Source: Escherichia coli
Lineage (GTDB): Bacteria; Pseudomonadota; Gammaproteobacteria; Enterobacterales; Enterobacteriaceae
Assembly: GCF_003334335.1 (NCBI RefSeq)
Contig: NZ_QOWQ01000034.1
Length of the DNA stretch: 50,400 nt
Strand: one strand, 5' to 3'
The notes below the pieces were generated by a model. That model was not told the origin of the DNA and ran no database searches. It saw only the letters and a program-made list of their open reading frames with translations. Of this stretch, positions 1 through 25,153 are shown in pieces. The position numbers were made by a program, and so were the translations under genes. Within the stretch, counting starts at the first letter, position 1, and every line of letters starts with the position of its first letter.

Positions 1-54
1 AGTTATCGTGAGAGTAATTCATCGGCACGTTAAATCATATCAGGCGTAATACCA

Positions 55-79
55 CAACCCTTAAGTTAGCGCTTATGGG
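55..79 (+). repeat. 25-bp sequence CAACCCTTAAGTTAGCGCTTATGGG, copy 1 (exact inverted copy at 50324-50348)
   Basis: Read directly; reverse complement of 50324-50348 is identical over 25 bp; lies 35 bp upstream of ecpB start. Confidence 0.8.
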
Positions 80-114
80 GTAGCCCCCCTGCTTTATTCC
101 TGGACGGAATTGTT

Positions 115-783: not shown

Positions 784-808
784 ATAGCTGTGCAGATGGA
801 TAACGACA

Positions 809-4967: not shown

Positions 4968-5646
4968 GGCCCTGCTGACAGCGGTCTGTATGCTGGCGGC
5001 ACCTTTGACACAGGCGATTTCGGTCGGCAATCTGACATTTTCGCTGCCGTCCGAGACTGACTTTGTCAGCAAACGTGTAGTGAATAACAACAAAAGCGCA
5101 CGGATATACCGTATTGCCATCAGTGCTATTGATAGCCCGGGCAGCAGTGAATTGCGCACCCGACCGGTGGATGTTGAACTGCTTTTCGCCCCCCGCCAGC
5201 TGGCGTTGCAGGCTGGTGAGAGCGAGTATTTTAAATTTTACTATCATGGTCCACGGGATAACCGCGAGCGCTACTACCGGGTCTCATTTCGCGAGGTCCC
5301 CACTCGTAACCATACAAGACGCAGCCCAACCGGCGGCGTGGTCAGCACGGAGCCGGTGGTGGTGATGGATACCATTCTGGTAGTACGACCACGTCAGGTT
5401 CAGTTTAAATGGTCCTTCGACAAGGTGACAGGAACGGTAAGTAACACTGGCAACACATGGTTTAAGCTACTGATTAAGCCAGGATGTGATTCGACCGAAG
5501 AGGAAGGCGATGCCTGGTATCTACGTCCGGGAGACGTGGTTCATCAGCCTGAGTTACGTCAGCCGGGGAATCACTATCTGGTCTATAACGACAAATTCAT
5601 TAAGATTAGCGATTCCTGTCCGGCTAAGCCCCCTTCGGCGGACTAA
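4936..5646 (+). CDS. ecpE: E. coli common pilus chaperone EcpE
   Basis: ORF 4891-5646; start chosen at internal ATG 4936 preceded by AGGAGA; overlaps ecpD 3' end by 32 nt. Confidence 0.8.
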
Positions 5647-5958
5647 GACTTATCCATCGGTCGAGGGAAGAATTCCACCTCAGAGCCCCAAAAATCGTTT
5701 AAATGATGTGGAAGCGATCGTCAATATCACCTGTAACGATGGGCTTTCTCATATGCACACCATAGTGTTCAGGAGACACGGAAAGGTATCAGGCAGCCTG
5801 CTAACGAGTGGTTTAATCACGAATTAGTACGTAAAATCGGTAACGGCTGGAAATCATTCAATACTCACACTATCGAAAGTTCCCCAGCCAACCGCGGTAC
5901 GTTCTTACATACGATGTACCGCTGTTCTCTTTACGATTTTTAGCTGTACTGGTGAATT

Positions 5959-6288
5959 ATGAGCAATCTGAATCCATGCATGACGTGTGGTGCCTGTTGT
6001 GCATTTTTCCGCGTCTCTTTTTACTGGGCCGAAGCCGACGATGCTGGCGGTACTATTCCCGCCAGGCTCACTGAACAAATATCCCCTTTTCACCGATGCA
6101 TGAGCGGTACCAATCAGAAAAACCCCCGATGTATTGCCCTTGCAGGAACCCCGGGCAAAAATGCCTGCTGCACGATATATAAAAATCGATCGTCCACATG
6201 CAGAGAATTCGCCATGTCTGGTGAGAACGGAGTCGTCAATGAGGCTTGCAATCGTGCAAGGGCTAAATACGGGCTGACACCGTTATAA
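5959..6288 (+). CDS. ykgJ: YkgJ-family cysteine-cluster protein (CxxCxxCC putative Zn/Fe-chelating domain)
   Basis: 109-aa ORF with CMTCGACC motif. Confidence 0.8.
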
Positions 6289-6493
6289 ACATACAATAAT
6301 TAATTGCACTGCCCCGCCAGCGATAATAGCGGGGCTTCGTTTTTCAGGGGTAACAAAACCCGATACTTCTTCTATTTGCCAGCAACAATGCCTCTCTTCT
6401 GTAGCGTTCTTCGGATCTACATCATCCTGAAGTAGCGCGATATACTCACTGACTATCTGCATCAGAATATAAAAAGCAATGTTTTTAACCTAT

Positions 6494-6524
6494 AAAAATG
6501 GCGCTGTATTTGCGCCATTTTTAT
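6494..6524. terminator. Bidirectional rho-independent terminator between convergent ykgJ and yagU
   Basis: Hairpin AAAATGGCGC-TGTATTT-GCGCCATTTT flanked by T/A runs on both strands. Confidence 0.55.
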
Positions 6525-6535
6525 CATTCAATGCA

Positions 6536-7150
6536 TTATCTGTTTGAGCCTAAAGGGATCTCAGGGTCTGGCTCATGAGTAATTCTGTTTCGTAAATCTC
6601 TGCGAATAATTTCAATAGACCAGAACCAGACTAAATGTCCAAAAATTTCAGAAACATTCTCATACCACGGGAGATCAAACAGAGGTGGCGTCAGTCCCAT
6701 GAGAGGGAATGAAATCATATGAACAAAAAGTTGGGCTAAAGCACCTGCCAGTAAGCCCTGCCAGAGTTTAATTTTTGGAAATACTTCAGCGACCACACAA
6801 TAACCGACAGCAAACACTATCGAAAAGATAATGTGCGTAACACCAACCCAGTTAAAGACATGCCCGGCAAAGGTATAAACAGCCGCATTGGGATCTGTCA
6901 GCCCCAACCAGTCTCGAAGAAAAATATACGGTGGATTGAGAAAATTACGCGAGCAATCAATTTGGCCTGCAGCCCTGATTAATGATTCCGGGCCACACGC
7001 TGCATTAAACATATCCACCGGGCTACGTGGCGGCAATGGAACTTCAGCCCCCCACTTCACGAATGCGGAAACAACGCCAGCAATCAGCCCAATGAATGCA
7101 GCAAGACCATAACGTCTGCGGTTCGGTGGAGTTTGTTCAAATATATTCAT
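6536..7150 (-). CDS. yagU: Inner membrane protein YagU (DUF1440 family)
   Basis: 204-aa ORF with hydrophobic segments; position between ykgJ and paoA. Confidence 0.85.
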
Positions 7151-7567
7151 ATCTACCCTGCTTGTACCATTATGTTATACACCTCTTCAGGAGTATTCAT
7201 AAAACAAGGCAAATGTAAAGAACTGTATTGTTTTGTATAACAAGATAGTTTCCTAATCGCCAATGAATATAAGCTCCATCATTTCTCCCTATTTTTATAT
7301 TAGAAGTGACAGAGATTTGCAGGGTGATGTAGAGCTGAAAATCACAGGTTTCCTTATTGGTTTTTGCATCGTACAACTAAAGCAATAAACCAGCTCCCAT
7401 CATCATCAACATCCCGGCGAACATGAATTTATTAGCCGGGCTCATAGCTGCATTCGCGTTTTAAGAATAATCCTCCTGCTGTCGCCGACTATGCTTAACG
7501 TTTAAAAAAGCATCAGCACTCTCGCAACGCACTCTTATTTTCCCCTTTAGAATACCGGAGGCCTGGT

Positions 7568-8257
7568 ATGAGCAACCAAGGCGAATACCCCGAAGATAAT
7601 CGGGTTGGGAAGCACGAGCCGCACGATTTAAGTTTGACCCGTCGCGATCTGATTAAAGTGAGCGCCGCAACAGCGGCGACCGCCGTGGTTTATCCTCATT
7701 CTACGCTGGCGGCAAGCGTTCCGGCAGCTACACCCGCGCCAGAGATAATGCCCCTGACACTGAAGGTGAACGGCAAAACCGAGCAGCTTGAGGTGGATAC
7801 CCGAACCACGCTACTGGACACTTTGCGTGAAAATCTGCATTTGATCGGTACCAAGAAAGGTTGCGATCACGGACAGTGCGGAGCCTGTACCGTGCTGGTC
7901 AATGGTCGCAGGCTTAATGCCTGCCTGACGCTTGCAGTCATGCATCAGGGGGCCGAGATCACCACCATTGAAGGCCTGGGTTCGCCAGATAATCTTCACC
8001 CCATGCAGGCGGCCTTTATCAAGCATGATGGCTTCCAGTGCGGCTACTGCACCTCCGGGCAAATTTGCTCATCAGTAGCGGTGCTAAAAGAGATTCAGGA
8101 CGGCATTCCCAGTCACGTCACGGTCGATTTGGTTTCCGCTCCAGAAACAACTGCCGATGAGATCCGTGAACGTATGAGCGGCAACATCTGTCGCTGTGGT
8201 GCATACGCTAACATCCTTGCCGCCATTGAAGATGCTGCGGGGGAGATAAAATCATGA
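7568..8257 (+). CDS. paoA: Periplasmic aldehyde oxidoreductase, 2Fe-2S ferredoxin subunit PaoA (Tat signal)
   Basis: 229 aa; twin-arginine motif LTRRDLIK; Cys clusters CxxGxCGxC and CGxC. Confidence 0.9.
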
Positions 8258-9210
8258 AGGCGTTTACCTATGAACGAGTGAATACCCCAGCCGAGGCGGC
8301 ACTTAGCGCTCAGCGCGTACCCGGCGCAAAATTTATCGCGGGCGGGACCAATCTGCTGGACCTGATGAAGCTGGAAATTGAAACGCCCACCCACCTTATC
8401 GATGTGAACGGCCTCGGGCTCGATAAGATTGAAGTGACCGACGCGGGTGGGCTGCGCATCGGCGCACTGGTACGGAACACCGACCTGGCGGCTCACGAGC
8501 GCGTGCGTCGTGATTACGCGGTACTCTCCCGCGCCCTGCTCGCTGGCGCGTCTGGTCAGTTACGTAATCAGGCAACCACCGCAGGTAATCTGCTCCAGCG
8601 CACGCGCTGCCCCTATTTTTACGACACCAATCAGCCCTGCAATAAGCGCCTGCCCGGGAGCGGCTGCGCGGCGCTTGAAGGCTTTAGCCGTCAGCACGCG
8701 GTGGTAGGCGTAAGCGAAGCCTGCATTGCCACCCATCCGAGCGATATGGCGGTCGCAATGCGGTTGCTGGATGCGGTGGTGGAAACCATCACGCCGGAGG
8801 GAAAGACTCGCAGTATCACACTGGCTGATTTTTATCACCCTCCGGGAAAAACGCCGCACATTGAAACCGCCCTGCTTCCCGGTGAGCTTATCGTTGCGGT
8901 GACGTTACCTCCACCGCTCGGCGGAAAACATATCTACCGTAAGGTGCGCGATCGCGCCTCCTACGCCTTTGCCCTGGTATCGGTCGCGGCGATTATTCAG
9001 CCTGACGGCAGCGGGCGCGTCGCGCTGGGCGGAGTAGCACATAAGCCCTGGCGCATTGAGGCTGCGGATGCTCAGCTATCCCAGGGGGCGCAGGCCGTAT
9101 ATGACACGCTGTTCGCCAGCGCCCATCCCACCGCTGAAAACACCTTTAAACTCCTGTTGGCGAAGCGAACGCTTGCCTCCGTACTGGCTGAAGCGAGGGC
9201 ACAGGCATGA
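8254..9210 (+). CDS. paoB: Aldehyde oxidoreductase FAD-binding subunit PaoB
   Basis: 318 aa; overlapping start/stop coupling with paoA and paoC. Confidence 0.9.
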
Positions 9211-11405
9211 AATTTGATAAACCCGCAGGGGAAAACCCGATCGATCAGCTGAAGGTTGTCGGTCGTCCCCATGACCGCATCGACGGACCGCTGAAAACTA
9301 CCGGCACGGCACGCTACGCCTACGAATGGCATGAAGAAGCCCCCAACGCCGCCTATGGCTATATCGTCGGTTCCGCCATTGCCAAAGGACGCCTCACCGC
9401 CCTTGATACGGACGCCGCGCAAAAAGCGCCGGGCGTACTGGCTGTCATTACCGCCAGTAACGCCGGGGCACTCGGCAAAGGCGACAAAAACACCGCCAGG
9501 CTGTTAGGCGGCCCCACTATTGAGCACTATCATCAGGCCATTGCGCTGGTAGTGGCCGAGACCTTCGAACAGGCGCGAGCGGCGGCCTCGCTGGTGCAGG
9601 CACACTATCGCCGTAATAAAGGAGCTTACTCCCTGGCGGACGAAAAACAGGCCGTCAATCAGCCGCCGGAAGACACGCCCGACAAAAACGTCGGTGACTT
9701 TGACGGGGCTTTCACCTCCGCTGCGGTGAAGATTGATGCTACCTACACGACCCCGGACCAGAGCCATATGGCGATGGAGCCGCATGCCTCGATGGCCGTC
9801 TGGGATGGAAATAAGCTTACCCTCTGGACCTCAAATCAGATGATTGACTGGTGCCGCACCGATCTGGCAAAAACGCTGAAAGTTCCCGTGGAGAATGTGC
9901 GTATTATCTCCCCGTATATCGGCGGAGGGTTTGGCGGCAAGCTGTTCCTGAGAAGCGATGCGCTGCTGGCGGCCCTCGCCGCCCGAGCGGTGAAACGTCC
10001 GGTTAAAGTGATGCTCCCCCGCCCCTCTATTCCCAATAACACCACGCACCGCCCCGCCACCCTTCAGCACTTGCGTATCGGTGCCGACCAGAGCGGGAAA
10101 ATCACCGCTATCTCACATGAAAGCTGGTCTGGAAACCTGCCCGGCGGCACGCCGGAAACGGCGGTACAGCAAAGCGAATTACTCTACGCCGGGGCGAATC
10201 GTCATACCGGCCTGCGGCTCGCCACGCTTGATTTGCCGGAAGGGAACGCCATGCGTGCGCCCGGCGAAGCCCCCGGTCTGATGGCGCTCGAAATCGCGAT
10301 CGACGAACTGGCGGAAAAAGCGGGCATCGATCCCGTCGAGTTTCGCATCCTGAATGACACTCAGGTTGACCCCGCCGACCCGACGCGCTGCTTCTCTCGC
10401 CGTCAGCTTATCGAGTGCTTGCGCACCGGAGCGGATAAATTTGGCTGGAAGCAGCGCAACGCCACACCCGGACAGGTGCGCGACGGGGAGTGGCTAGTCG
10501 GCCACGGTGTTGCGGCGGGCTTTCGCAATAATCTGCTGGAAAAATCGGGTGCTCGGGTTCACCTCGAACAAAACGGCACCGTTACCGTAGAAACGGACAT
10601 GACCGACATTGGCACCGGCAGCTACACCATTCTGGCCCAGACGGCAGCGGAAATGCTTGGCGTACCGCTGGAGCAGGTTGCGGTTCACCTCGGCGATTCC
10701 AGTTTCCCGGTTTCTGCGGGTTCTGGTGGACAATGGGGCGCGAATACCTCCACCTCCGGCGTTTACGCCGCCTGTATGAAGCTTCGCGAAATGATTGCCT
10801 CGGCAGTCGGGTTTGATCCTGAGCAGTCGCAGTTTGCCGACGGCAAGATTACCAACGGTACCCGAAGCGCCACGCTACATGAAGCCACCGCAGGCGGCAG
10901 ACTGACAGCGGAAGAGAGCATTGAATTCGGAACACTGAGCAAAGAGTACCAGCAGTCGACCTTTGCCGGGCATTTTGTGGAGGTCGGCGTGCATAGCGCG
11001 ACGGGAGAAGTTCGGGTCCGGCGTATGCTCGCTGTGTGTGCTGCAGGACGCATCCTGAATCCGAAAACTGCGCGCAGCCAGGTCATTGGCGCAATGACTA
11101 TGGGCATGGGCGCGGCACTGATGGAGGAGCTGGCGGTGGATGACCGTTTGGGCTACTTCGTTAATCACGATATGGCGGGGTATGAGGTGCCGGTTCATGC
11201 GGATATCCCAAAACAGGAGGTGATTTTCCTGGATGATACCGACCCCATATCCTCCCCGATGAAGGCCAAAGGTGTCGGTGAGCTGGGCCTGTGCGGCGTG
11301 AGCGCGGCTATCGCCAACGCGGTGTATAACGCCACCGGTATTCGGGTACGGGATTATCCCATCACTCTGGATAAGCTGCTCGATAAGCTGCCGGATGTGG
11401 TTTAA
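9207..11405 (+). CDS. paoC: Aldehyde oxidoreductase molybdopterin-binding catalytic subunit PaoC
   Basis: 732 aa; xanthine dehydrogenase-family large subunit. Confidence 0.9.
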
Positions 11406-11414
11406 GGAGGAACA

Positions 11415-12371
11415 ATGTCATACCCGCTTTTTGACAAAGACGAACACTGGCATAAGCCAGAGCAGGCGTTTCTCACCGATGACCACCGGACCATTCTGCG
11501 CTTCGCCGTAGAGGCGCTAATGTCCGGTAAAGGAGCGGTGCTGGTGACGCTGGTGGAGATACGCGGCGGCGCGGCGCGCCCGCTCGGGGCGCAGATGGTG
11601 GTGCGCGAAGATGGTCGTTACTGCGGTTTTGTCTCTGGCGGCTGCGTGGAGGCCGCTGCCGCTTTTGAAGCGCTGGAGATGATGGGCTCAGGCCGCGATC
11701 GCGAAATTCGCTATGGCGAAGGTTCGCCGTGGTTTGACATCGTTCTGCCCTGCGGCGGTGGGATCACGCTGACGCTCCATAAACTACGCTCGGCACAGCC
11801 TCTGCTCGCCGTGCTGAACCGCCTGGAACAGAGAAAACCGGTGGGGCTGCGCTACGATCCGCAAGCACAATCGCTGGTGTGCCTGCCCACGCAAACCCGG
11901 ACGGGCTGGAATCTCAATGGCTTTGAGGTGGGGTTCAGGCCATGCGTCAGGCTGATGATTTACGGACGTTCTCTTGAGGCGCAGGCAACCGCGAGTCTTG
12001 CAGCAGCCACAGGCTATGACAGCCATATCTTCGATCTTTTTCCGGCCTCAGCCAGCGCTCAGATCGATACCGATACGGCGGTCATTTTGCTGTGCCATGA
12101 TCTCAACCGGGAGCTGCCAGTGTTGCAGGCCGCGCGAGAAGCAAAACCCTTTTATCTCGGCGCATTGGGCAGCTATCGAACCCACACGTTACGTCTGCAA
12201 AAGCTCCACGAGCTGGGATGGTCCAGGGAGGAAACAACGCAAATCCGGGCACCCGTCGGGATATTCCCCAAAGCCCGGGATGCGCATACTCTGGCACTCT
12301 CCGTGCTGGCAGAAGTCGCCTCTGTACGTCTCCATCAGGAGGAGGATTCATGCCTGCCCCCGTCGTCCTGA
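11415..12371 (+). CDS. paoD: XdhC-family molybdenum cofactor insertion chaperone PaoD
   Basis: 318 aa; last gene of paoABCD. Confidence 0.85.
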   Translation: MSYPLFDKDEHWHKPEQAFLTDDHRTILRFAVEALMSGKGAVLVTLVEIRGGAARPLGAQMVVREDGRYCGFVSGGCVEAAAAFEALEMMGSGRDREIRYGEGSPWFDIVLPCGGGITLTLHKLRSAQPLLAVLNRLEQRKPVGLRYDPQAQSLVCLPTQTRTGWNLNGFEVGFRPCVRLMIYGRSLEAQATASLAAATGYDSHIFDLFPASASAQIDTDTAVILLCHDLNRELPVLQAAREAKPFYLGALGSYRTHTLRLQKLHELGWSREETTQIRAPVGIFPKARDAHTLALSVLAEVASVRLHQEEDSCLPPSS

Positions 12372-12760
12372 TCCTTGCGGCCGGGCGTGGAGAGCGCTTT
12401 CTCGCCTCCGGGGGAAATACCCATAAGTGTATCGGCTGGCGTCAGTCCCCGGAGGTTGCGCCTTATCGCTGGCCATTTGAAGAAAACGGGAGAACTTTCG
12501 ACCTTGCGATTGAACCGCAGATTACGACTAATGATCTGCGTCTGATGTTGAGGCTGGCTCTTGCCGGCGGAGGAATAACAATTGCCACTCAGGAAACTTT
12601 CAGGCCATATATTGAAAGCGGTAAGCTTGTATCGCTGCTTGATGACTTTCTTCCACAATTTCCGGGCTTCTATCTGTATTTCCCACAGCGTCGCAATATT
12701 GCACCAAAGCTCCGCGCCCTGATTGACTACGTCAAAGAATGGCGGCAGCAATTGGCTTAA
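12350..12760 (+). pseudogene. yagP: Chimeric remnant: nucleotidyltransferase-like (MocA/MobA-type) N-terminus fused to a LysR-family C-terminal fragment (yagP-like)
   Basis: ATG at 12350 after AGGAGG, overlapping paoD end; N-term MPAPVVLILAAGRGERF resembles MocA-type signature; C-terminal part resembles a LysR substrate-binding domain. Confidence 0.5.
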
Positions 12761-12885
12761 ATGTCTGCACCTGCACTGCCTGATGTCAGAACAGTATTTT
12801 GATGAATTGCCAAGGTTACAATGGCACAAATACGGCACAGGAGGAAACGTGGTGTATTTAAATATGGGGTAACTCTTTGATTTTA

Positions 12886-12961
12886 ATGGTGCCGATAATA
12901 GGAGTCGAACCTACGACCTTCGCATTACGAATGCGCTGCTCTACCAACTGAGCTATATCGG
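12886..12961 (-). tRNA. thrW: tRNA-Thr (anticodon CGU)
   Basis: 76-nt cloverleaf read on minus strand: acceptor GCCGATA/TATCGGC, TTCGACT T-loop, CGT anticodon, CCA end. Confidence 0.9.
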
Positions 12962-13076
12962 CCCTGAAAGGACATGTTCACGAACGTGAATCACGGTGGA
13001 CAAGGTTAAAACTAACCGGGCGATGCGTCAATGGCCTTGTGAATCAAATGGCTACTTTTGCATCACCCGGTTTTAT

Positions 13077-14330
13077 TTACGCACGAATGGTGTAATCACC
13101 AATGCCGATCCACTTGTAAGTGGTCAGTGCTTCCAGCCCCATTGGGCCACGCGCGTGGAGTTTTTGTGTGCTTACCGCCACTTCCGCACCCAGACCAAAC
13201 TGGCCGCCGTCGGTAAAACGCGTAGAGGCGTTAACGTAAACAGCGGACGAATCCACTTCGTTAACAAAACGCTGGGCGTTGCGCATATCGCGGGTCAGGA
13301 TCGCATCGGAGTGTTGTGTGCCGTGTTCACGAATATGGGCGATGGCATCGTCAAGATCGCTGACGATTTTGACGTTCAAATCTAATGACAGAAACTCATC
13401 GTCATACTCTTCGGCTTTAACAGCAACCACCTTCGCAGGGCCTGCCTGCAACTGCGCCAGTGCAGCTGCATCTGCGTGTAATGTCACGCCGCTTTCCGCC
13501 ATTTGTTTGCTTAATGCGGGCAGGAAGCTATCGGCGATGTTTTTATTCACCAGCAACGTTTCAACCGTATTACATGTGCTCGGACGCTGAGTTTTCGCGT
13601 TGACGATCACTTTTAATGCTTCAGCGATCTCTACACTTTCATCAACGTAAATATGGCATACGCCTATACCACCTGTGATCACCGGGATTGTCGACTGTTC
13701 ACGGCACAGTTTATGCAAACCAGCGCCACCACGCGGGATCAGCATGTCGATGTATTTATCCATACGCAGCATTTCACTGACCAGCGCACGGTCAGGATTA
13801 TCAATCGCCTGCACGGCACCCGCCGGTAAGCCGCAGGATTTCAGGGCGTCCTGAATCACCGCCACCGTTGCAGCGTTAGTGCGACACGTTTCTTTGCCAC
13901 CGCGCAGGATCACCGCATTACCGGTTTTCAGGCACAGCGAAGCGACATCAACCGTCACGTTCGGGCGCGCTTCATAAATCACGCCAATAACCCCCAGCGG
14001 TACGCGACGACGCTCAAGACGCAGGCCGCTGTCCAGTACGCCGCCATCGATTACCTGCCCCACCGGATCGGCGAGGTTGCACACCTGACGTACATCGTCG
14101 GCAATGCCTTTCAGCCGTGCGGGCGTCAGTGCCAGACGGTCAAGCATCGCTTCGCTAAGGCCATTGGCTCGCGCGTCAGCAACATCCTGGGCGTTAGCGT
14201 TGAGGATGATTTCGCTTTGTGCTTCCAGTTCATCGGCGATTTTTTCCAGCACGCGATTTTTTTCGCGGCTGGAGAGTTGCGCTAATTTATACGAGGCTTG
14301 CTTCGCGGCAATGCCCATTTGTTCCAGCAT
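13077..14330 (-). CDS. proA: Gamma-glutamyl phosphate reductase
   Basis: 417 aa; position after proB. Confidence 0.92.
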
Positions 14331-14341
14331 CAGCCTGCTCC

Positions 14342-15445
14342 TTAACGGGTAATCATGTCATCACGGTGAACGGCAACCGGGCCGTATTCATATCCCAGTA
14401 TTGCATCAATTTCTTGCGAGTGGTGTCCGGCAATACGGCGTAATGCATCGCTGTTGTAACGACTGACGCCGTGGGCGATATCGCGGCCTTCGAGGTTGCA
14501 AATGCGGATGACTTCACCACGCGAGAAATTGCCAGTCACGCTTTTAATGCCTTTCGGCAACAGGGAGCTGCCGCGTTCCAGAATGGCGGCAGTTGCCCCT
14601 TCATCTACCGTGATTTCACCCGCCGGCGGCGCACCGAAAATCCAGCGTTTACGGTTTTCAAGCGGAGTCGCCTGGGCATGGAACAGCGTACCGACGGAAA
14701 TGCCTTCCATCACATCACCAATAACGCCCGGCTTGCTGCCCGCGGCAATAATGGTGTCGATACCCGCACGGCAAGCCACGTCAGCGGCCTGCAATTTGGT
14801 ACTCATGCCGCCAGTTCCGAGGCCTGAAACGCTGTCACCGGCAATCGCGCGCAGTGCGTCATCAATGCCGTAAACATCTTTAATCAGTTCTGCCTGCGGA
14901 TTGCTGCGCGGGTCAGCGGTATACAAACCTTTTTGATCGGTCAGCAGCAACAGTTTATCGGCACCCGCAAGAATCGCCGCCAGCGCAGAAAGGTTATCGT
15001 TATCGCCGACCTTAATCTCTGCCGTAGCGACAGCATCGTTCTCATTGATTACCGGAACGATATTGTTATCGAGCAACGCTCGCAGGGTGTCGCGGGCGTT
15101 CAGGAAGCGTTCACGGTCTTCCATATCAGCACGGGTCAGCAGCATTTGCCCGACGTGAATGCCATAAATCGAAAACAGCTGTTCCCACAGTTGAATCAGT
15201 CGACTCTGCCCTACCGCCGCCAGCAGTTGTTTCGAGGCGATGGTCGCTGGCAGTTCCGGGTAACCCAGGTGCTCACGTCCGGCGGCGATCGCGCCCGACG
15301 TCACAATAACAATCCGATGCCCGGCGGCATGTAACTGCGCGCACTGGCGAACAAGTTCAACGATATGGGCACGGTTCAGACGGCGCGATCCGCCTGTTAG
15401 CACACTGGTGCCGAGTTTTACCACCAGCGTCTGGCTGTCACTCAT
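14342..15445 (-). CDS. proB: Glutamate 5-kinase
   Basis: ORF 14342-15532; start set to internal ATG 15445 ([16 protein letters not shown]) giving 367 aa. Confidence 0.9.
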
Positions 15446-15633
15446 GATTCTCTGCCATTCAATTTTAGGAAAAATGATATCAAACGAACGTTTTAGCAGG
15501 ACTGTCGTCGGTTGCCAACCATCTGCGAGCAAAGCATGGCGTTTTGTTGCGCGGGATCAGCAAGCCTAGCGGCAGTTGTTTACGCTTTTATTACAGATTT
15601 AATAAATTACCACATTTTAAGAATATTATTAAT

Positions 15634-15655
15634 CTGTAATATATCTTTAACAATC
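15634..15655 (+). promoter_or_regulatory. Pho box (PhoB binding site) of phoE promoter
   Basis: CTGTAATATATCTTTAACAATC about 80-100 bp upstream of phoE start; matches CTGTCATA-type direct repeats. Confidence 0.6.
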
Positions 15656-15732
15656 TCAGGTTAAAAACTTTCCTGTTTTCAACGGGACTCTCCCGCTGAA
15701 TATTCGCGCGTTAATTAAAATCAGGAATGAAA

Positions 15733-16788
15733 ATGAAAAAGAGCACTCTGGCATTAGTGGTGATGGGCATTGTGGCATCTGCATCTGTACAGGCTGCAGA
15801 AATATATAATAAAGACGGTAATAAACTGGATGTCTATGGCAAAGTTAAAGCCATGCATTATATGAGTGATAACGCCAGTAAAGATGGCGACCAGAGTTAT
15901 ATCCGTTTTGGTTTTAAAGGCGAAACACAAATTAACGATCAACTGACTGGTTATGGTCGTTGGGAAGCAGAGTTTGCCGGTAATAAAGCAGAGAGTGATA
16001 CTGCACAGCAAAAAACGCGTCTCGCTTTTGCCGGGTTGAAATATAAAGATTTGGGTTCTTTCGATTATGGTCGTAACCTGGGGGCGTTGTATGACGTGGA
16101 AGCCTGGACCGATATGTTCCCGGAATTTGGTGGCGATTCCTCGGCGCAGACCGACAACTTTATGACCAAACGCGCCAGCGGTCTGGCGACGTATCGGAAC
16201 ACCGACTTCTTCGGCGTTATCGATGGCCTGAACTTAACCCTGCAATATCAAGGGAAAAACGAAAACCGCGACGTTAAAAAGCAAAACGGCGATGGCTTCG
16301 GCACGTCATTGACATATGACTTTGGCGGCAGCGATTTCGCCATTAGTGGGGCCTATACCAACTCAGATCGCACCAACGAGCAGAACCTGCAAAGCCGTGG
16401 CACAGGCAAGCGTGCAGAAGCATGGGCAACAGGTCTGAAATACGATGCCAATAATATTTATCTGGCAACTTTCTATTCTGAAACACGCAAAATGACGCCA
16501 ATAACTGGCGGCTTTGCCAATAAGACACAGAACTTTGAAGCGGTCGCTCAATACCAGTTTGACTTTGGTCTGCGTCCATCGCTGGGTTATGTCTTATCGA
16601 AAGGGAAAGATATTGAAGGTATCGGTGATGAAGATCTGGTCAATTATATCGACGTCGGTGCTACGTATTATTTCAACAAAAATATGTCAGCGTTTGTTGA
16701 TTATAAAATCAACCAACTGGATAGCGATAACAAATTGAATATTAATAATGATGATATTGTCGCGGTTGGCATGACGTATCAGTTTTAA
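15733..16788 (+). CDS. phoE: Phosphate-starvation-inducible outer membrane porin PhoE
   Basis: 351 aa from [21 protein letters not shown]; porin C-terminal ...YQF. Confidence 0.92.
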
Positions 16789-16796
16789 TGAATATT

Positions 16797-16826
16797 GCCG
16801 GATGTGATGCATCCGGCACATTTCAC
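16797..16826. terminator. Hairpin terminator between convergent phoE and crl
   Basis: GCCGGATGTGATGCATCCGGC stem-loop immediately after phoE stop. Confidence 0.5.
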
Positions 16827-17285
<459 letters not shown>

Positions 17286-18530
17286 TTAACACAAGCGTTT
17301 TTCGATCCAGTCGGTGATTTCCTGAAGACCTTTGTCAAAATTCCGATACACCGGGTTAAATGGGATCTCTAATAATTTACCGTCAGCAGATGATGAGGTG
17401 ATTAAGCGTGAGTCCTCTTCCGGGCTGAACGGATCGTTCTTCCAGTAGCCTGATAACATTGGCGTTGGGCAGCGACGTCCCAGCAATCCTTGCACTTTTA
17501 ATGAATAGCGATTCAGCTCCACGCGCAACGCTTCATCGGAAGCATCATGCATCCCCAAACGACTGGCCAGAACGTCAAGATACATTTCCGGCACCTGTTG
17601 CTGGCACTTAAAATCACTCAACAGGGTATGAACTACCGGACCAAGACAGGCAACCGCTTTCAGACGCGGCGATTCAAGGTATGCCAGACGCACGGCAACG
17701 TTAGCGCCGAAACGGAAACCAAAGGCCGCGACGCGAGTGTGATCCACCCACGGTACGTTAGGCAGCGCCTTTAAGACGTGCTGATGCAACAGGCTGGAGT
17801 CCTGGGTGAGCTTCCATTTTGAAGAAAAGCCCACCGACGGCATATCAATAGTCAGCATCGCAATGCCGCGCGGCGCAAAATAACGTTCATACAGGCTGTA
17901 ATAGTCCGTCTGCATCGCATCCAGACCACCACACATTAATACCGTCGGGAACGGGCCATCGCCTTTCGGCATATGCAAAAAGCCGGTGATGGGCGCACCG
18001 CCGGGTACGGTAAACTCCATCTGCCGCATCGTGCCCGGTAGACGCTGAGCGGCCTCTTCATAGGCGCGGTTTGACAAAGCCTGCGCTTGCTCGGCCAGGT
18101 CATCTCCTTTCAGATGAGGATAGGCGGCAATGTTGTACAACGTAGCCGCATGCAGCCAGTGACGACCACTGAGTTGCGGATCGTCTTCCGCACAGGCTTT
18201 TTGTTGCCACACCATCGCCTGGGTGGCCCACTCATAAATCCAGTTGCCGCCACGGTAGCCAATCACCGTATCGTATAAATCATCGTCGGTACGTTCGGCA
18301 TCGCTCATCACAATACGTGCCTGGACGTCGAGGATTTCGCGTGGGTCAATGCCGCGCCAGATCCACATCAGACGGTTAATCATGCGATACCAGTGAGGGA
18401 TGGTTTTACCATCAAGGGCCGACTGCACAGGCGGTTGTGCGCCGTGATTAAAGCGGCGGACTAGCGTCGAGGTTTCAGGATGTTTAAAGCGGGGTTTGAA
18501 CAGGGTTTCGCTCAGGTTTGCCTGTGTCAT
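17286..18530 (-). CDS. frsA: Esterase FrsA (alpha/beta hydrolase)
   Basis: 414-aa ORF; position between crl and gpt. Confidence 0.9.
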
Positions 18531-18621
18531 GGATGCAGCCTCCAGAATACTTACTGGAAACTATTGTAACCCGCCTGAAGTTAAAAAGAACAACGCCCGG
18601 CAGTGCCAGGCGTTGAAAAGA

Positions 18622-19080
18622 TTAGCGACCGGAGATTGGCGGGACGAATACGACGCCCATATCCCACGGCTGTTCAATCCAGGTATCTTGCGGGATATCA
18701 ACAACATAGTCATCAACCAGCGGACGACCAGCCGGTTTTGCGAAGATGGTGACAAAGTGCGCTTTTGGATACATTTCACGAATCGCAACCGCAGTACCAC
18801 CGGTATCCACCAGGTCATCAATAACGATGAAGCCTTCGCCATCGCCTTCTGCGCGTTTCAGCACTTTAAGCTCGCGCTGGTTGTCGTGATCGTAGCTGGA
18901 AATACAAACGGTATCGACATGACGAATACCCAGTTCACGCGCCAGTAACGCACCCGGTACCAGACCGCCACGGCTTACGGCAATAATGCCTTTCCATTGT
19001 TCAGAAGGCATCAGTCGGCTTGCGAGTTTACGTGCATGGATCTGCAACATGTCCCAGGTGACGATGTATTTTTCGCTCAT
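18622..19080 (-). CDS. gpt: Xanthine-guanine phosphoribosyltransferase
   Basis: 152 aa; PRPP-binding motif [11 protein letters not shown]. Confidence 0.92.
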
Positions 19081-19340
19081 GTGAAGTGTCCCAGCCTGTT
19101 TATCTACGGCTTAAAAAGTGTTCGAGGGGAAAATAGGTTGCGCGAGATTATAGAGATCTGGCGCACTAAAAACCAGTATTTCACATGAGTCCGCGTCTTT
19201 TTACGCACTGCCTCTCCCTGACGCGGGATAAAGTGGTATTCTCAAACATATCTCGCAAGCCTGTCTTGTGTTGACAACATTTTCTGCTAACCCTGTGACC
19301 TGCAATACTGTTTTGCGGGTGATCGACAAGGAGACTTAAC

Positions 19341-20798
19341 GTGTCTGAACTGTCTCAATTATCTCCACAGCCGCTGTGGGATATTTTTGCCAAAATCTGT
19401 TCTATTCCTCACCCGTCCTATCATGAAGAGCAACTCGCTGAATACATTGTTGGTTGGGCAAAAGAGAAAGGTTTCCATGTCGAACGCGATCAGGTAGGTA
19501 ATATCCTGATTCGTAAACCTGCTACCGCAGGTATGGAAAATCGTAAACCGGTCGTCTTACAGGCCCACCTCGATATGGTGCCGCAGAAAAATAACGACAC
19601 CGTGCATGACTTCACGAAAGATCCTATCCAGCCTTATATTGATGGCGAATGGGTTAAAGCGCGCGGCACCACGCTGGGTGCGGATAACGGCATTGGTATG
19701 GCCTCTGCGCTGGCGGTTCTGGCTGACGAAAACGTGGTTCACGGCCCGCTGGAAGTGCTGCTGACCATGACCGAAGAAGCCGGTATGGACGGTGCGTTCG
19801 GCTTACAGGGCAACTGGTTGCAGGCTGATATTCTGATTAACACCGACTCCGAAGAAGAAGGTGAAATCTACATGGGTTGTGCGGGGGGTATCGACTTCAC
19901 CTCCAACCTGCATTTAGATCGTGAAGCGGTTCCAGCTGGTTTTGAAACCTTCAAGTTAACCTTAAAAGGTCTGAAAGGCGGTCACTCCGGCGGGGAAATC
20001 CACGTTGGGCTGGGTAATGCCAACAAACTGCTGGTGCGCTTCCTGGCGGGTCATGCGGAAGAACTGGATCTGCGCCTTATCGATTTCAACGGCGGCACAC
20101 TGCGTAACGCCATCCCGCGTGAAGCCTTTGCGACCATTGCTGTCGCAGCTGATAAAGTCGACGTCCTGAAATCTCTGGTGAATACCTATCAGGAGATCCT
20201 GAAAAACGAGCTGGCAGAAAAAGAGAAAAATCTGGCCTTGTTGCTGGACTCTGTAGCGAACGATAAAGCTGCCCTGATTGCGAAATCTCGCGATACCTTT
20301 ATTCGTCTGCTGAACGCCACCCCGAACGGTGTGATTCGTAACTCCGATGTAGCCAAAGGTGTGGTTGAAACCTCCCTGAACGTCGGTGTGGTGACCATGA
20401 CTGACAATAACGTAGAAATTCACTGCCTGATCCGTTCACTGATCGACAGCGGTAAAGACTACGTGGTGAGCATGCTGGATTCGCTGGGTAAACTGGCTGG
20501 CGCGAAAACCGAAGCGAAAGGCGCATATCCTGGCTGGCAGCCGGACGCTAATTCTCCGGTGATGCATCTGGTACGTGAAACCTATCAGCGCCTGTTCAAC
20601 AAGACGCCGAACATCCAGATTATCCACGCGGGCCTGGAATGTGGTCTGTTCAAAAAACCGTATCCGGAAATGGACATGGTTTCTATCGGGCCAACTATCA
20701 CCGGTCCACACTCTCCGGATGAGCAAGTTCACATCGAAAGCGTAGGTCATTACTGGACACTGCTGACTGAACTGCTGAAAGAAATTCCGGCGAAGTAA
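19341..20798 (+). CDS. pepD: Cytosol nonspecific dipeptidase PepD (M20 family)
   Basis: 485 aa; GTG start. Confidence 0.9.
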   Translation: MSELSQLSPQPLWDIFAKICSIPHPSYHEEQLAEYIVGWAKEKGFHVERDQVGNILIRKPATAGMENRKPVVLQAHLDMVPQKNNDTVHDFTKDPIQPYIDGEWVKARGTTLGADNGIGMASALAVLADENVVHGPLEVLLTMTEEAGMDGAFGLQGNWLQADILINTDSEEEGEIYMGCAGGIDFTSNLHLDREAVPAGFETFKLTLKGLKGGHSGGEIHVGLGNANKLLVRFLAGHAEELDLRLIDFNGGTLRNAIPREAFATIAVAADKVDVLKSLVNTYQEILKNELAEKEKNLALLLDSVANDKAALIAKSRDTFIRLLNATPNGVIRNSDVAKGVVETSLNVGVVTMTDNNVEIHCLIRSLIDSGKDYVVSMLDSLGKLAGAKTEAKGAYPGWQPDANSPVMHLVRETYQRLFNKTPNIQIIHAGLECGLFKKPYPEMDMVSIGPTITGPHSPDEQVHIESVGHYWTLLTELLKEIPAK

Positions 20799-20811
20799 TT
20801 ATTTGATTTGC

Positions 20812-20853
20812 TGCCGGATGGCGTTTAATCGCCTTCCGGCAGTTTCATCCTTC
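20812..20853. terminator. Hairpin terminator after pepD (convergent with prfH)
   Basis: CTGCCGGATGGCG-TTTAAT-CGCCTTCCGGCAG followed by TTT. Confidence 0.55.
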
Positions 20854-20854
20854 A

Positions 20855-21412
20855 TTATCCTTCGATAAAAGCCATCCCTGTAAATGTCCGTCGCGGGTTG
20901 CCACGTTCAATCTGGTGATGGAACATTCGCCGCTGCGATTTCAGCGCCGCGCTATTTTCCTGTTGCTGTTGCTCCAGCTTCCAGGCAATCAGCAATCGTG
21001 CCAGCCGCTTGTTAGCATGCTGACTACGCTCTGACTGAACCTTCACGCTAATACCGGATGCCAAATGCGTGGCGCGTACCGCCGAGTCGGTTTTATTGAC
21101 ATGTTGACCGCCCGGCCCCGACGAACGCAGCGTCTCATAACGGATTGCATCCGATTGTTCCTGCTCATCAGCGGTAAAACGCCCAATGCCCAGAAACCAG
21201 TTTTTGCGCCCATGATGAGGCCGATACGGACTCGGACAAATCCACTGAATAGTGCCACACCAGCTTTCGCTTAATGCCCATGCGTTATCGCCATCGAGAG
21301 AAACCAGCGCCGAACGCAGTGTGTCAGAGTAGCGGCCCGTTTCTGTTTCCAGCACCGTTACCGCGACGTCTTGCCGGGTAAAAACGACCAACAGAGAAGA
21401 ACGCTGCGCCAA
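20855..21412 (-). pseudogene. prfH: Peptide chain release factor homolog PrfH, apparently N-terminally truncated
   Basis: 185-aa ORF with GGQ motif ([11 protein letters not shown]); its 5' region overlaps an rtcB-like fragment. Confidence 0.65.
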
Positions 21413-21590
21413 TCGGGTAGCCGCGTCCGGGGTGTAAATCTGGCATCCCCACTACGCGCTGCATGTTGGGTAAATTTGCCGTGGTGTGTAATTGTTGGAT
21501 CGCTAAACTCTCGATCCACAGGTCATCAGATGCGATGGTAAATACCGCATCGGATAAGGGACGAATATATTTGCCCATGTACCATTCCAT
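21324..21590 (-). pseudogene. ykfJ: RtcB-like RNA ligase N-terminal fragment (ykfJ-type remnant)
   Basis: 88-aa ORF resembling an RtcB N-terminus, far shorter than a full RtcB; overlaps prfH. Confidence 0.5.
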
Positions 21591-21895
21591 TTATACTCGT
21601 CATACTTCAAGTTGCATGTACTGCGACTGCGTTCGTTCACCCCAGTCACTTACTTATGTAAGCTCCTGGCGATTCACTCGCTTGTCGCCTTCCTGCAACT
21701 CGAATTATTTAGAGTATATAAATATAAAAATCAGGAAATGGCAGACGAATCCAGGGCAAGAAAAAAAGAATTAATCCTGGAAAGGTCTGCAAAGAGTCAT
21801 TGATAAAGGATTTGTCATGATTTACCTCCTTGCAGTTTGTGGAATCAGAAAACGCGCACATACCAGGCGGGCGTTATTTTCATTGCAAGCTGGAT

Positions 21896-22348
21896 TTAAT
21901 GTTGCGGTTTATATCGCATATAAAAATTAGTAAACCACGCTCCCCGGCATTCAACGCGCTGCTGCTTAACTGTCTGAAAACCATAACGTTCAAAAAAGGG
22001 TTTTGCGGTTATGCTTGCGTCCACCGTAAGTTCGGATTCAGACTTAATCAAAGGTTTTAACAAAGCGCTGGCAACCCCACGGCGGGTGTATTCAGGGTCA
22101 ACAAATAACATATCGATATAATGTTCAATGCGGGAAATAAAACCAACCGGTTGTGCATTAATGATCGCAACCCACACTTGTGATTTCGCGAGTTTCTCCT
22201 TCCAGCGAGATTCGTCAATCTGCGCCCAGGCGGAAATTTGTTGTGGTGAATAATGCTGACTGGCGGTCATCGTAACCGCTCTAATGAAAATAGCGCATAG
22301 TTGCTGAAAATCGCCAGGCTGATAGTTTCTTATTTGTATGTTATTCAT
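21896..22348 (-). CDS. yafP: GNAT-family acetyltransferase YafP
   Basis: 150 aa; last gene of dinB-yafN-yafO-yafP. Confidence 0.85.
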   Translation of the reverse strand: MNNIQIRNYQPGDFQQLCAIFIRAVTMTASQHYSPQQISAWAQIDESRWKEKLAKSQVWVAIINAQPVGFISRIEHYIDMLFVDPEYTRRGVASALLKPLIKSESELTVDASITAKPFFERYGFQTVKQQRVECRGAWFTNFYMRYKPQH

Positions 22349-22357
22349 AATATAAAT

Positions 22358-22756
22358 TCAAAAACGCATGCGAAACGCTTCTGCCATTTTCCCAATTTTA
22401 TGCATTTGGTTGTTATCTCGAGCCAGTTTATGAGGTTCAGGTTTCAGAATGGCAATGAGCAACCATGCTTGCTCATCAAACGCCCCCTGACAATATACCA
22501 AATGCGCTTCGTCATTCGTTCTGCTGAATTGGCGCAACTGTGGCGGAAATGGATTATTCTCATTTGCCAGATGAATATGAGCAACTCGCTCAAATTTGAT
22601 TAATGGCCAGGTAAAGGAGTCGTCGTAGAGTGCATCGCGACCAAATATATCTGGCAAAACACCGTCACGCTTATAGGAAATAAAATCCGCCGTTAACGCA
22701 TCAAGTTCCTCTGCTGTAAGTTGCAGGCGAATAAGTTTTGTTTTGAATACCCGCAT
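22358..22756 (-). CDS. yafO: Type II toxin YafO
   Basis: 132 aa, directly downstream of yafN. Confidence 0.85.
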   Translation of the reverse strand: MRVFKTKLIRLQLTAEELDALTADFISYKRDGVLPDIFGRDALYDDSFTWPLIKFERVAHIHLANENNPFPPQLRQFSRTNDEAHLVYCQGAFDEQAWLLIAILKPEPHKLARDNNQMHKIGKMAEAFRMRF

Positions 22757-22758
22757 CC

Positions 22759-23052
22759 TTATTCCTTAAAGTCATTGAAATCATCATCCGTCATATCATT
22801 AAGATATTGTTCAGCGCGGCGTGTAATTTCCTCTAATCTTGCAGCACTTGGACGGAAGCGCGCCTTTATGGGCTTTTTCTCCTCTTGTTCAGCAAGCATG
22901 TCCATTAACGCTTCGAATGCGCTGGCACTTAAGAGATATCCTGCGGGGCGATTATTAGAAAGAACCGCAACCGGTTGATCAATAAAGTATTTAGCTGGGT
23001 TTTTACGTAACTCAGTGATATTGACCGATTTTTCAGCGAGAATTCGATGCAT
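22759..23052 (-). CDS. yafN: Type II antitoxin YafN
   Basis: 97 aa, acidic C-terminus; 3-nt gap to yafO. Confidence 0.85.
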   Translation of the reverse strand: MHRILAEKSVNITELRKNPAKYFIDQPVAVLSNNRPAGYLLSASAFEALMDMLAEQEEKKPIKARFRPSAARLEEITRRAEQYLNDMTDDDFNDFKE

Positions 23053-23103
23053 ACAGTGATACCCTCATAATAATGCACACCAGAATATACATAATAGTAT
23101 ACA

Positions 23104-24159
23104 TCATAATCCCAGCACCAGTTGTCTTTCCATTTGCGGGTCAAGCAACGTCACATGCAGCCCCACCAGACGCACACCGCGCCCGCCGCGGCGTTCATCC
23201 CAGGTTTTACGCGCGGTGGCGATTAGATCAGCTTTATTCAGCCGCGGCCAGACGTGCTCCTGGGTGGTTTGCTGAAAATCGTCGAACTTTAATTTCACCC
23301 CCTGGCGAGCAATCAGTAAATCAGGTTTTACCTTTGCCAGACGGCGTTCAAGTTCCGGATACAGCCGCTCGATAATCGCTTCACATTCAGACCAGTGATG
23401 AATATCTTCCGCCATCGTGCGTTCCACGCCGACGGATTTTCGCAACCGTTCGCTGTTAACATCGCGTTCGTCAATCCCCTGACTACGCTCCCACAAAATG
23501 CGGCCAAATTTGCCAAAGCGTTTAAGCAGCATCACCAGATCACACTTTTGTACATCACCGCAGGTCCGCAGCCCCATCGCTTCCAGTTTTGCCGCTGAGA
23601 CTTTGCCGACGCCGGGGATTTTTGCCAGCGGTAAGGTTTGTAAAAATGCCGGAACTTCTGCCGGCGTAATCACAAACTGGCCGTTGGGTTTATTCATGTC
23701 GGAGGCGATTTTGGCGAGAAACTTTACTGGTGCCACGCCCGCAGACGCCGTCAGTTGCAGCTCGTTGAAGATTGTCTGGCGGATTTCCTGGGCGATGAGG
23801 GTCGCAGAACCGTGGCAATGGACGCTATCGGTGACATCGAGATAAGCCTCATCCAGTGACAACGGTTCAATGCGCGAGGTGTAGCGCGAGAAGATTTCAC
23901 GGATATGATTTGAGGCTTCTTTGTAGGCGTCAAAGCGCCCCGGAAGCAAGGTGAGATGTGGGCATAATTTGAGCGCCATCCCTGTCGGCATAGCGCTACG
24001 TACGCCAAATTTACGCGCGGGATAATTGGCGGTGCTGATCACCCCCCGACGTTCGCGGCTGCCGCCAATAGCAATAGGGATATCGCGCAGGGCGGGATTG
24101 TCGCGCATCTCCACTGCGGCGAAAAAGCAGTCCATATCCACATGAATGATTTTACGCAT
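23104..24159 (-). CDS. dinB: DNA polymerase IV (Y-family translesion polymerase)
   Basis: 351 aa; [21 protein letters not shown]-terminus. Confidence 0.93.
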
Positions 24160-24175
24160 TGCTCACCTCTCAACA

Positions 24176-24191
24176 CTGGTAAAGTATACAG
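24176..24191 (-). promoter_or_regulatory. LexA (SOS) box of dinB promoter
   Basis: Minus-strand CTGTATACTTTACCAG, about 17 bp upstream of dinB ATG; matches CTG-N10-CAG LexA consensus. Confidence 0.8.
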
Positions 24192-24229
24192 TGATTTCAG
24201 GGTTTGAGAAATGCGTAAAGATTCAGCAT

Positions 24230-25153
24230 TTAACGCGTTCGCTGCGAAAGCACCTGCTGCTTATCCAGCTTTTGCACCAGCGGCTGCACCACTTTATCCC
24301 CATGCTGACCAAAGTATTGATACAGCGTATCGGACGCACTTTTGGTCAGCACCATAATCTCAATGCGCCGGTTGCCCGCGCTTTGCGGATTTTTGGAATC
24401 CAGCAGCATCTGGTCCGCCATTGCGCTTACCTGCATCACTTTATCTTCCGGCATTCCGGCCTCTTCCAGCACCCGACGAGCCGAAAGCGCGCGGTCACCC
24501 GAAAGGTTCCAGTTGTTGTAGATATTGTTTTTGTAGGCCATCGCATCGGTATGCCCGGTAATAATAATTTTATTATCGAGCGAGTCGAACACTGGCGCGA
24601 GCTCCACCAGCAGCGTTTTAAAGAACGGCATAATCTTCGCGCTGCCGCGTTCAAACATATTGCGGTTCTGGTCGTCTTTAATCAGCACGCGTAATCCCTG
24701 GGGAACAATCTCCATCTCCAGATTCGCTTCCATATGCGCATCACGGGCAATGGTGTTGATACTGGTTGCCAGCTCACCAAGCTCGGTGGCGGATTTCTTC
24801 TTCAGCAGCGCCGTTTTCTCATTCACATCACGCGCTTTTTTCTCCGTCTCTTCCGGCACCGCCACGGTGGCAGGTTTTGGCGGATGAGACGGGCTGATTT
24901 TATTTAACGGCGACAGCCCACCACCGTTAAAAATCGACTGCCCGTGCAGCGCGGCGATAATGCTTTCACGCTCGGATTTACTGACGCTGTTGACAATCCA
25001 CAGCGTCATAAACAGCGCCATCATTGCCAAAGTAAAGTCGGCGAACGCCACCTTCCACGCCCCGCCGTGGTGCCCGGCATGATTCTTTTTGATCTGCCGC
25101 CGGACGATGGTGGTTTTTGCCCCACGATCGCGGCGGTTACCCGTCTTTCTCAT
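24230..25153 (-). CDS. lafU: Lateral flagellar motor stator protein, MotB-like
   Basis: ORF 24230-25186; start set at ATG 25153; TM helix plus C-terminal OmpA-like domain. Confidence 0.85.
   Translation of the reverse strand: MRKTGNRRDRGAKTTIVRRQIKKNHAGHHGGAWKVAFADFTLAMMALFMTLWIVNSVSKSERESIIAALHGQSIFNGGGLSPLNKISPSHPPKPATVAVPEETEKKARDVNEKTALLKKKSATELGELATSINTIARDAHMEANLEMEIVPQGLRVLIKDDQNRNMFERGSAKIMPFFKTLLVELAPVFDSLDNKIIITGHTDAMAYKNNIYNNWNLSGDRALSARRVLEEAGMPEDKVMQVSAMADQMLLDSKNPQSAGNRRIEIMVLTKSASDTLYQYFGQHGDKVVQPLVQKLDKQQVLSQRTR

Follow-up and report, generated by a model that had tools for sequence, protein, structure and literature searches.

A LexA-controlled dinB-yafN-yafO-yafP operon next to an intact lafU gene in Escherichia coli, and its preservation where K-12-type strains have lost Flag-2

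Introduction

The dinB locus of E. coli and its relatives is known in several arrangements, and the closest to the one described here is the four-gene operon of K-12 MG1655 (b0231–b0234). In that operon, yafN and yafO are part of a DNA-damage-induced transcript and the deletion of the dinB promoter abolishes the induction, and a second promoter that is autoregulated by YafN lies directly upstream of yafN (PMC2814082). Both a four-gene and a two-gene form of the dinB operon have been described, with yafP as the conserved partner of dinB and with yafNO missing from about half of the natural isolates (PMC3105422). The two-gene dinB-yafP form, found in E. coli CFT073 and in strains of phylogroup B1, has the same promoter and the same LexA box and likewise ends with yafP, but it lacks yafN and yafO and its two genes are joined through an ATGA overlap (Gutierrez et al, 2011; PMC3105422). 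A monocistronic dinB with dpaA (yafK) and pepD as its neighbours is found in Salmonella, Citrobacter sedlakii/amalonaticus, Kosakonia and others. These loci share a TTCTCA-type -35 element, a TATACT -10 element and a box beginning with CTGTATACTT with the E. coli locus, whereas Flag-2, dinJ-yafQ, yafL and rayT are missing on their upstream side and yafNOP and prfH on their downstream side.

The lateral flagellar locus Flag-2 of E. coli 042 and other Enterobacterales ends in the order lafS-lafT-lafU beside dinB (De Maayer et al, 2020; PMC6993521). Here, a 50,400-nucleotide stretch of E. coli DNA (contig NZ_QOWQ01000034.1 of assembly GCF_003334335.1), called the window hereafter, was analysed. 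It shows the same order as these Flag-2 loci and no difference from them that is relevant to the dinB region. From position 18557 to 24998 the window has the same sequence as K-12 MG1655; the difference from K-12 lies in lafU, which is truncated at its 5' side and fused to a remnant of lfhA in MG1655, whereas it is complete in the window and Flag-2 continues upstream of it. The operon, its LexA box, the second promoter, both operon forms and the lfhA-lafU deletion have all been published before, and the main value of the present comparison is a correct annotation of this junction; otherwise its importance is small.

Results and Discussion

The region between 21896 and 24191 extends exactly from the stop codon of yafP to the 5' end of the LexA box and contains four genes on the minus strand, the products of which all score above the curated cut-offs of their NCBIfam equivalog models. 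The first gene, dinB (23104–24159), encodes a Y-family DNA polymerase IV of 351 amino acids that matches NF002677 over residues 1–345 with 546.9 bits (cut-off, 256), and its DNA is 100% identical to K-12 b0231 in the alignment. It is followed by yafN (22759–23052), encoding an antitoxin of 97 amino acids (NF007300, 196.7 bits against 99), and by yafO (22358–22756), encoding a ribosome-dependent mRNA interferase toxin of 132 amino acids (NF007377, 246.6 against 153); the pair thus consists of neighbouring small genes which each match their own equivalog model. NCBIfam labels YafN "type I", which is a misnomer: PMC2814082 describes a type II pair. The final gene of the operon is yafP (21896–22348), which encodes a GNAT N-acetyltransferase of 150 amino acids (NF007338, 324.3 bits against 146). 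The operon in the window is the four-gene form that is typical of phylogroup A, and the presence/absence polymorphism of yafNO was also seen in the present genome comparison.

The genes are separated by gaps of 51 nt (dinB-yafN), 2 nt (yafN-yafO) and 9 nt (yafO-yafP). All four genes share one strand, and their co-transcription from the dinB promoter is reported in PMC2814082. The 51-nt gap between dinB and yafN (23053–23103, minus strand) contains the published proximal yafNO promoter that is autoregulated by YafN (PMC2814082), and a promoter scan returned a promoter-like site at 23132–23103, near this gap. A weak terminator-like hairpin was found by the scan at 22383–22359, at the 3' end of yafO. 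No strong terminator was found 3' of yafP, where a weak 5-bp hairpin with a U-rich tail is all that was seen and where the predicted fold is not above that of shuffled sequences.

Upstream of dinB, the sequence CTGTATACTTTACCAG at 24176–24191 (minus strand) forms a LexA (SOS) box with the extended palindrome cACTG...CAGTg. Of its two half-sites, the left one (CTGT) is perfect and the right one reads CCAG instead of ACAG. The SOS box given for dinB in PMC3009722, where it precedes a transcript induced by UV, has an identical sequence. The 16-mer occurs once in the window, as against none expected from shuffled sequences. When the window was scored with a LexA matrix made from 16 published E. 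coli boxes (PMC3009722) from which dinB was excluded and whose training scores range from 15.9 to 27.6 bits, the dinB box was the top site of the whole 50.4 kb with 16.94 bits, although the best site in shuffled windows averages 12.14 ± 2.32 bits and the dinB box is thus only about 2 sd higher. The loose motif CTGT-N9-CAG occurs 6 times in the window against 4.6 expected, which is not rarer than chance and is uninformative alone, and the strict motif CTGT-N8-ACAG has no match in the window. Because the loose motif is not rare and the matrix score stands about 2 sd above shuffles, the assignment of the LexA box was based on its position and its conservation jointly.

The stop codon of lafU lies at 24232–24230, the spacer from this stop to the dinB ATG is 70 nt, and the box begins 38 nt past the stop and ends 16 nt ahead of the ATG. 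The scan found TTCTCA (-35, 24205–24210) and TATACT (-10, 24183–24188), both on the minus strand and separated by 16 nt, as the sole sigma-70-like promoter within the 70-nt spacer. The -10 element is inside the LexA box, as is usual where LexA represses; the overlap is that of an operator with a predicted core promoter, which was recognized by its consensus match and whose start site was deduced from the hexamers. The region of the dinB Shine-Dalgarno sequence, GAGAGGTGAG at 24162–24171 (minus strand), was read from the sequence, and a purine-rich block is kept at this position in other genera. Rfam searches at gathering thresholds gave nothing within 21.8–24.3 kb. Elsewhere in the window, Rfam matches were obtained for IS009, naRNA4, the thrW tRNA and ES036.

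The conservation of this arrangement was examined in 81 dinB loci, comprising the window and 80 loci from other Enterobacteriaceae species, a set in which E. albertii and E. fergusonii are absent. A LexA-type box is located 14–33 nt upstream of the ATG in all 81 loci and starts with CTGTATACTT in 72 of them, and the exact TTCTCA hexamer, 15–18 nt upstream of the -10 element, is kept in 51. When the 80 upstream regions were aligned, the DNA upstream of the -35 element was unrelated between genera and the similarity began at the -35 hexamer. The comparison delimits a conserved promoter-operator module of dinB of about 55 nt, from the -35 element to the ATG, and all DNA upstream of this module has undergone repeated replacement in the various genera.

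The gene next to this module in the window is lafU (24230–25153, minus strand), which encodes an intact MotB-like stator protein of 307 amino acids and is the last gene of Flag-2 (NF005273, 578 bits against 383). The reading frame is open for 307 codons with the RefSeq start, and the RefSeq lafU of strain 300709 is likewise 924 bp. It is preceded by the gene for the MotA-type LafT (375 bits with the MotA1 model), and in strain 300709, which is nearly identical to the window, a gene for a FliA-type sigma factor lies further upstream. The protein models and strain 300709 together thus identify the Flag-2 end lafS-lafT-lafU with an intact LafU. The original prediction had named a dinB-yafN-yafO-yafP operon with a LexA box about 40 bp from the lafU stop, directly adjoining the lateral flagellar locus. 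The operon identity was upheld by the equivalog models and the K-12 identity, the box by its uniqueness, its matrix rank and its presence in every locus surveyed, and the distance and the adjacency to Flag-2 by the measurements given above. The accompanying statement that transcription from the dinB promoter runs away from the flagellar genes is correct for dinB itself, but lafU and dinB are in tandem and flagellar transcription heads towards dinB.

It had further been proposed that the short spacing between lafU and the LexA box marks the insertion or deletion boundary which separates this Flag-2-positive strain from K-12. This proposal has in its favour that Flag-2 indeed ends with lafU adjoining dinB and that, in comparison with other genera, the synteny of the backbone gmhA-yafJ-dpaA | dinB breaks at the lafU-dinB spacer. 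The alignment of the K-12 lafU-dinB junction, which had been suggested as the check, was run with the MG1655 segment 246000–256500 and refutes it. The K-12 sequence matches window positions 18557–24998 at 100.000% identity along 6442 bp, free of mismatches and gaps, and the junction is unchanged in K-12. The identical stretch includes pepD, remnants of prfH/ykfJ, an ERIC element, the four-gene operon, its promoter, the box, the entire spacer and 769 bp from the 3' end of lafU, so the breakpoint at 24996–24998 is inside lafU and not in the spacer. The annotated order in K-12 is lafU' (b0230)-dinB-yafN-yafO-yafP, in which lafU is a pseudogene of 756 bp with the lfhA pseudogene immediately next to it.

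The K-12 junction could be reconstructed from the end of this alignment and from strain 300709, which shares 99.9% identity with the window and retains Flag-2 in full, lfhA through lafU. In K-12, the sequence at the junction is AAAGTTGAT|TGTCAAC, whereas the intact locus reads AAAGTTGAT|GATCAT on the lfhA side and GCTGTGGAT|TGTCAAC on the lafU side, with a 3-bp GAT microhomology at 24996–24998. The K-12 deletion comprises 35,582 bp, from inside lfhA to inside lafU. Its lafU end is at about codons 52–53 of LafU (..TLW|IVNS..), 805 bp from the LexA box, and its lfhA end lies beyond the window, which ends before lfhA. This agrees with the passage on the deletion in PMC6993521, citing Ren et al (2005), which puts the K-12-type deletion inside the ORFs of lfhA and lafU. 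Because intact lafU and lafT continue past 24998, the strain carries the undeleted allele; the K-12-type allele, in which lfhA' is fused to 'lafU at GAT, was not found in this strain.

The same conclusion about the spacer was reached at the population level. An 801-bp probe that spans the breakpoint was searched in 5426 complete E. coli genomes, and the intact lafT-lafU joint was covered in full in 1319 of them (24%). In a sample taken at even intervals, all 21 truncated matches, with O157:H7 and strain C among them, ended at the same position. About 75% of the complete genomes show this K-12-type end point. The 131-nt lafU-dinB junction was found at an identity of at least 95% in 5413 of the 5426 genomes, irrespective of their Flag-2 status. 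Since it is near-universal, the spacer does not separate Flag-2-positive from K-12-type strains, and few features of the neighbourhood vary as little. Taken with the breakpoint inside lafU, this leaves next to no chance that the spacing is the boundary with K-12.

The idea of a boundary does hold in a different comparison, the one with genera in which dpaA precedes dinB. Most other genera have a backbone of gmhA-yafJ-dpaA (yafK, on the opposite strand), dinB and pepD (on the opposite strand). Escherichia has extra DNA at two places in it, namely dinJ-yafQ, yafL, rayT and Flag-2 between dpaA and dinB, and yafNOP and rtcB'/prfH' between dinB and pepD. As the similarity to the other genera starts at the -35 element, the 19-nt Escherichia-specific spacer from the lafU stop to the conserved -35 (24211–24229, minus strand) is the right-hand limit of Flag-2 when compared with the family backbone. 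Judged from these alignments, the 19-nt gap thus marks a Flag-2 edge only against other genera and not against K-12. In members of the Citrobacter freundii complex, lafT-lafU is also found upstream of dinB, with an additional ORF of 226 amino acids between them.

These results together suggest, with a confidence close to certainty, that the region is the canonical LexA-controlled dinB-yafN-yafO-yafP operon of E. coli and that the loss of Flag-2 in K-12-type strains spares it; none of the results is at odds with this. To this interpretation our analysis contributes the gene identities, the position of the box, its overlap with a promoter-like sequence, the conservation, the K-12 identity and the breakpoint; LexA repression, damage induction, co-transcription and the second promoter come from the literature on the identical K-12 sequence. 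The operon would be driven by a sigma-70 promoter (-35 TTCTCA, 16 nt, -10 TATACT) in the 70-nt gap after lafU. As the operator spans the -10 element and the likely start site, LexA dimers are expected to block RNA polymerase there, and upon DNA damage the RecA-stimulated self-cleavage of LexA would lift the block; the binding of LexA and the induction by damage are carried over from the identical K-12 sequence (PMC3009722; PMC2814082). The transcript would then cross dinB, encoding the translesion DNA polymerase IV, the YafN/YafO pair and finally yafP, and the genes of the pair would also be served by their own YafN-autoregulated promoter in the 51-nt gap. The only difference between this strain and K-12 would be that the ancestral 35.6-kb Flag-2 has been retained here, whereas K-12 types have deleted the lfhA-lafU segment. 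Because the Flag-2 polymorphism leaves the dinB control region intact, Pol IV is expected to be under the same SOS regulation in K-12-type strains as in Flag-2-positive ones, provided that lafU is not read through into dinB.

Such read-through would mean that transcription of lafT-lafU, which depends on LafS/sigma-28, feeds dinB and raises the level of Pol IV mRNA without DNA damage. The genes lafT, lafU and dinB are in tandem on one strand, the scan returned no terminator-like site on the minus strand from 24230 to 24159, and folding of the lafU 3' end with the spacer gave no hairpin followed by a U-run. The tandem order and the lack of a terminator between lafU and dinB make read-through structurally possible in Flag-2-positive strains. 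In one natural genome, that of strain 23CRST013, the promoter and the box have been lost and dinB is fused straight behind the lafU stop. The argument is nevertheless a structural one that is drawn from the sequence; LexA bound to its operator could act as a roadblock to read-through from lafU, and the extra ORF between lafU and dinB in the Flag-2 loci of Citrobacter indicates that the arrangement is not conserved. On balance, we consider that read-through of this kind is unlikely.

The promoter is also bracketed by a 15-nt inverted repeat, the 5' arm of which, TTTACGCATTTCTCA at 24205–24219, includes the -35 element and the 3' arm of which, TGAGCAATGCGTAAA at 24151–24165, includes the end of the Shine-Dalgarno sequence and the dinB ATG (both on the minus strand; 14 of 15 positions complementary, loop of 39 nt). 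RNAs that start upstream could form a hairpin that hides the Shine-Dalgarno sequence and the AUG of dinB, so that translation would occur only from LexA-gated transcripts. The complementarity of the arms and a predicted hairpin that pairs both elements fit this reading, and inverted repeats of this type are rare, with 3 in the window against 0.10 in shuffled sequences. A duplex-energy test gave p = 0.007–0.03 in near relatives, but p = 0.06 in the window, and among 80 other loci p ≤ 0.05 was reached in 8 against about 4 expected. No covariation was seen: E. coli genomes show no variation in the arms apart from a sole substitution at a position that is already mismatched. In addition, the -35 element, the Shine-Dalgarno sequence and the first codons already place constraints on both arms. 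The predicted accessibility from the Shine-Dalgarno sequence to the AUG was 0.21 in the read-through RNA against 0.27 ± 0.08 when the 5' arm was scrambled, which is within the noise, and 0.33–0.42 in the promoter-initiated RNA. A translational gate of this kind is therefore very improbable; the tests came out weak and give no support to a selected function of the repeat. We give just as little credence to the combined reading, in which lafT-lafU reads into dinB in Flag-2 strains and the repeat hides the dinB ribosome-binding site and so keeps the polymerase under LexA control. If it were true, the deletion variant 23CRST013 would express Pol IV together with the flagellar genes.

Downstream of yafP, the segment at 21634–21677 matches the primers ERIC1R and ERIC2 at 21 of 22 positions each, and represents the inverted-repeat core of an ERIC element. 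In the genome search, the ERIC stretch produces several additional match places per genome.

The Flag-2 deletion segregates among very close relatives

The sequence flanking the Flag-2 lateral flagellar cluster on the dinB side (window 18557-24998) was compared with that of K-12 and found to be 100% identical, with the identity extending to the deletion junction itself. On the lfhA side, the flank of strain 300709, which carries the full cluster, differed from K-12 by 1 mismatch in 4062 bp. Furthermore, the haplotypes that are 95% to 100% identical to the window include both Flag-2 alleles, intact and deleted. Thus, even very closely related strains differ in whether they carry Flag-2, a pattern suggesting that one allele has spread by recombination rather than by simple vertical descent.

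In the K-12-like strain CIT, the truncated lafU (5731-6516 of locus L002) was annotated by PGAP as an intact protein of 261 aa, whereas the same truncated gene is a pseudogene in the MG1655 record. The start codon of the CIT ORF lies inside the lfhA remnant, and the ORF is therefore a chimera spanning the deletion junction.

The lafT-lafU genes were also found upstream of dinB at five loci of the Citrobacter freundii complex (L017, L021, L024, L027 and L030). These loci differ from the window in having an extra co-directional ORF of 226 aa, about 750 bp upstream of dinB, which separates it from lafU, and in lacking yafNOP downstream of dinB.

The dinB promoter region and its loss in one genome

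The complete genome of E. coli 23CRST013 (NZ_AP045773.1, 1520-1560 of locus L090, corresponding to window ~24140-24216) has a deletion at the dinB start. The deletion removes the -35 and -10 elements, the LexA box, the SD and the first codons of dinB, and the junction reads ...lafU TAA-ATGCTGAATCTTT|TGGATATGGAC... In the RefSeq annotation, dinB of this strain starts immediately 3' of the lafU stop. This junction could be an assembly error; if the deletion is real, LexA control of Pol IV would be gone in 23CRST013 and Pol IV could be expressed only together with lafU.

In the window, the dinB promoter and LexA box are flanked on both sides by the arms of a 15-nt inverted repeat (24151-24165 and 24205-24219; 14/15 matching). 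Such 15-nt repeats are rare, three being observed in the window against 0.10 expected. No covariation was found between the arms, and the modelled effect of the repeat on accessibility of the dinB start site was only marginal.

Other elements of the operon and the window

A terminator-like hairpin of nine pairs followed by a T-rich tail (22359-22383, minus strand; a consensus match only) was located at the yafO 3' end, just ahead of the yafP start, and might reduce yafP transcription relative to dinB-yafNO. Downstream, between yafP and the rtcB/ykfJ remnant, lies an ERIC/IRU repeat (21634-21677, within an element of about 21590-21720), which accounts for several extra BLAST match places per genome.

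The region 12869-18657 matched thrW-proA-proB-phoE-crl-frsA-gpt of K-12 at 99.9%, but crl is intact and without the IS1I insertion, unlike in K-12. To the left of thrW (1-12868), the sequence differs from the K-12 CP4-6 prophage and therefore represents a different island at thrW. Rfam matched IS009 RNA at 6331-6530. In addition, REP-type repeats occupy 36372-36545, an interval separating clusters of Flag-2 genes, with an naRNA4 match at 36391-36468. A match to the ES036 (CssrF) sRNA (30552-30594) adjoins the lateral flagellin region and coincides with a further 15-nt inverted repeat (30546), one of two in the window besides that at dinB.
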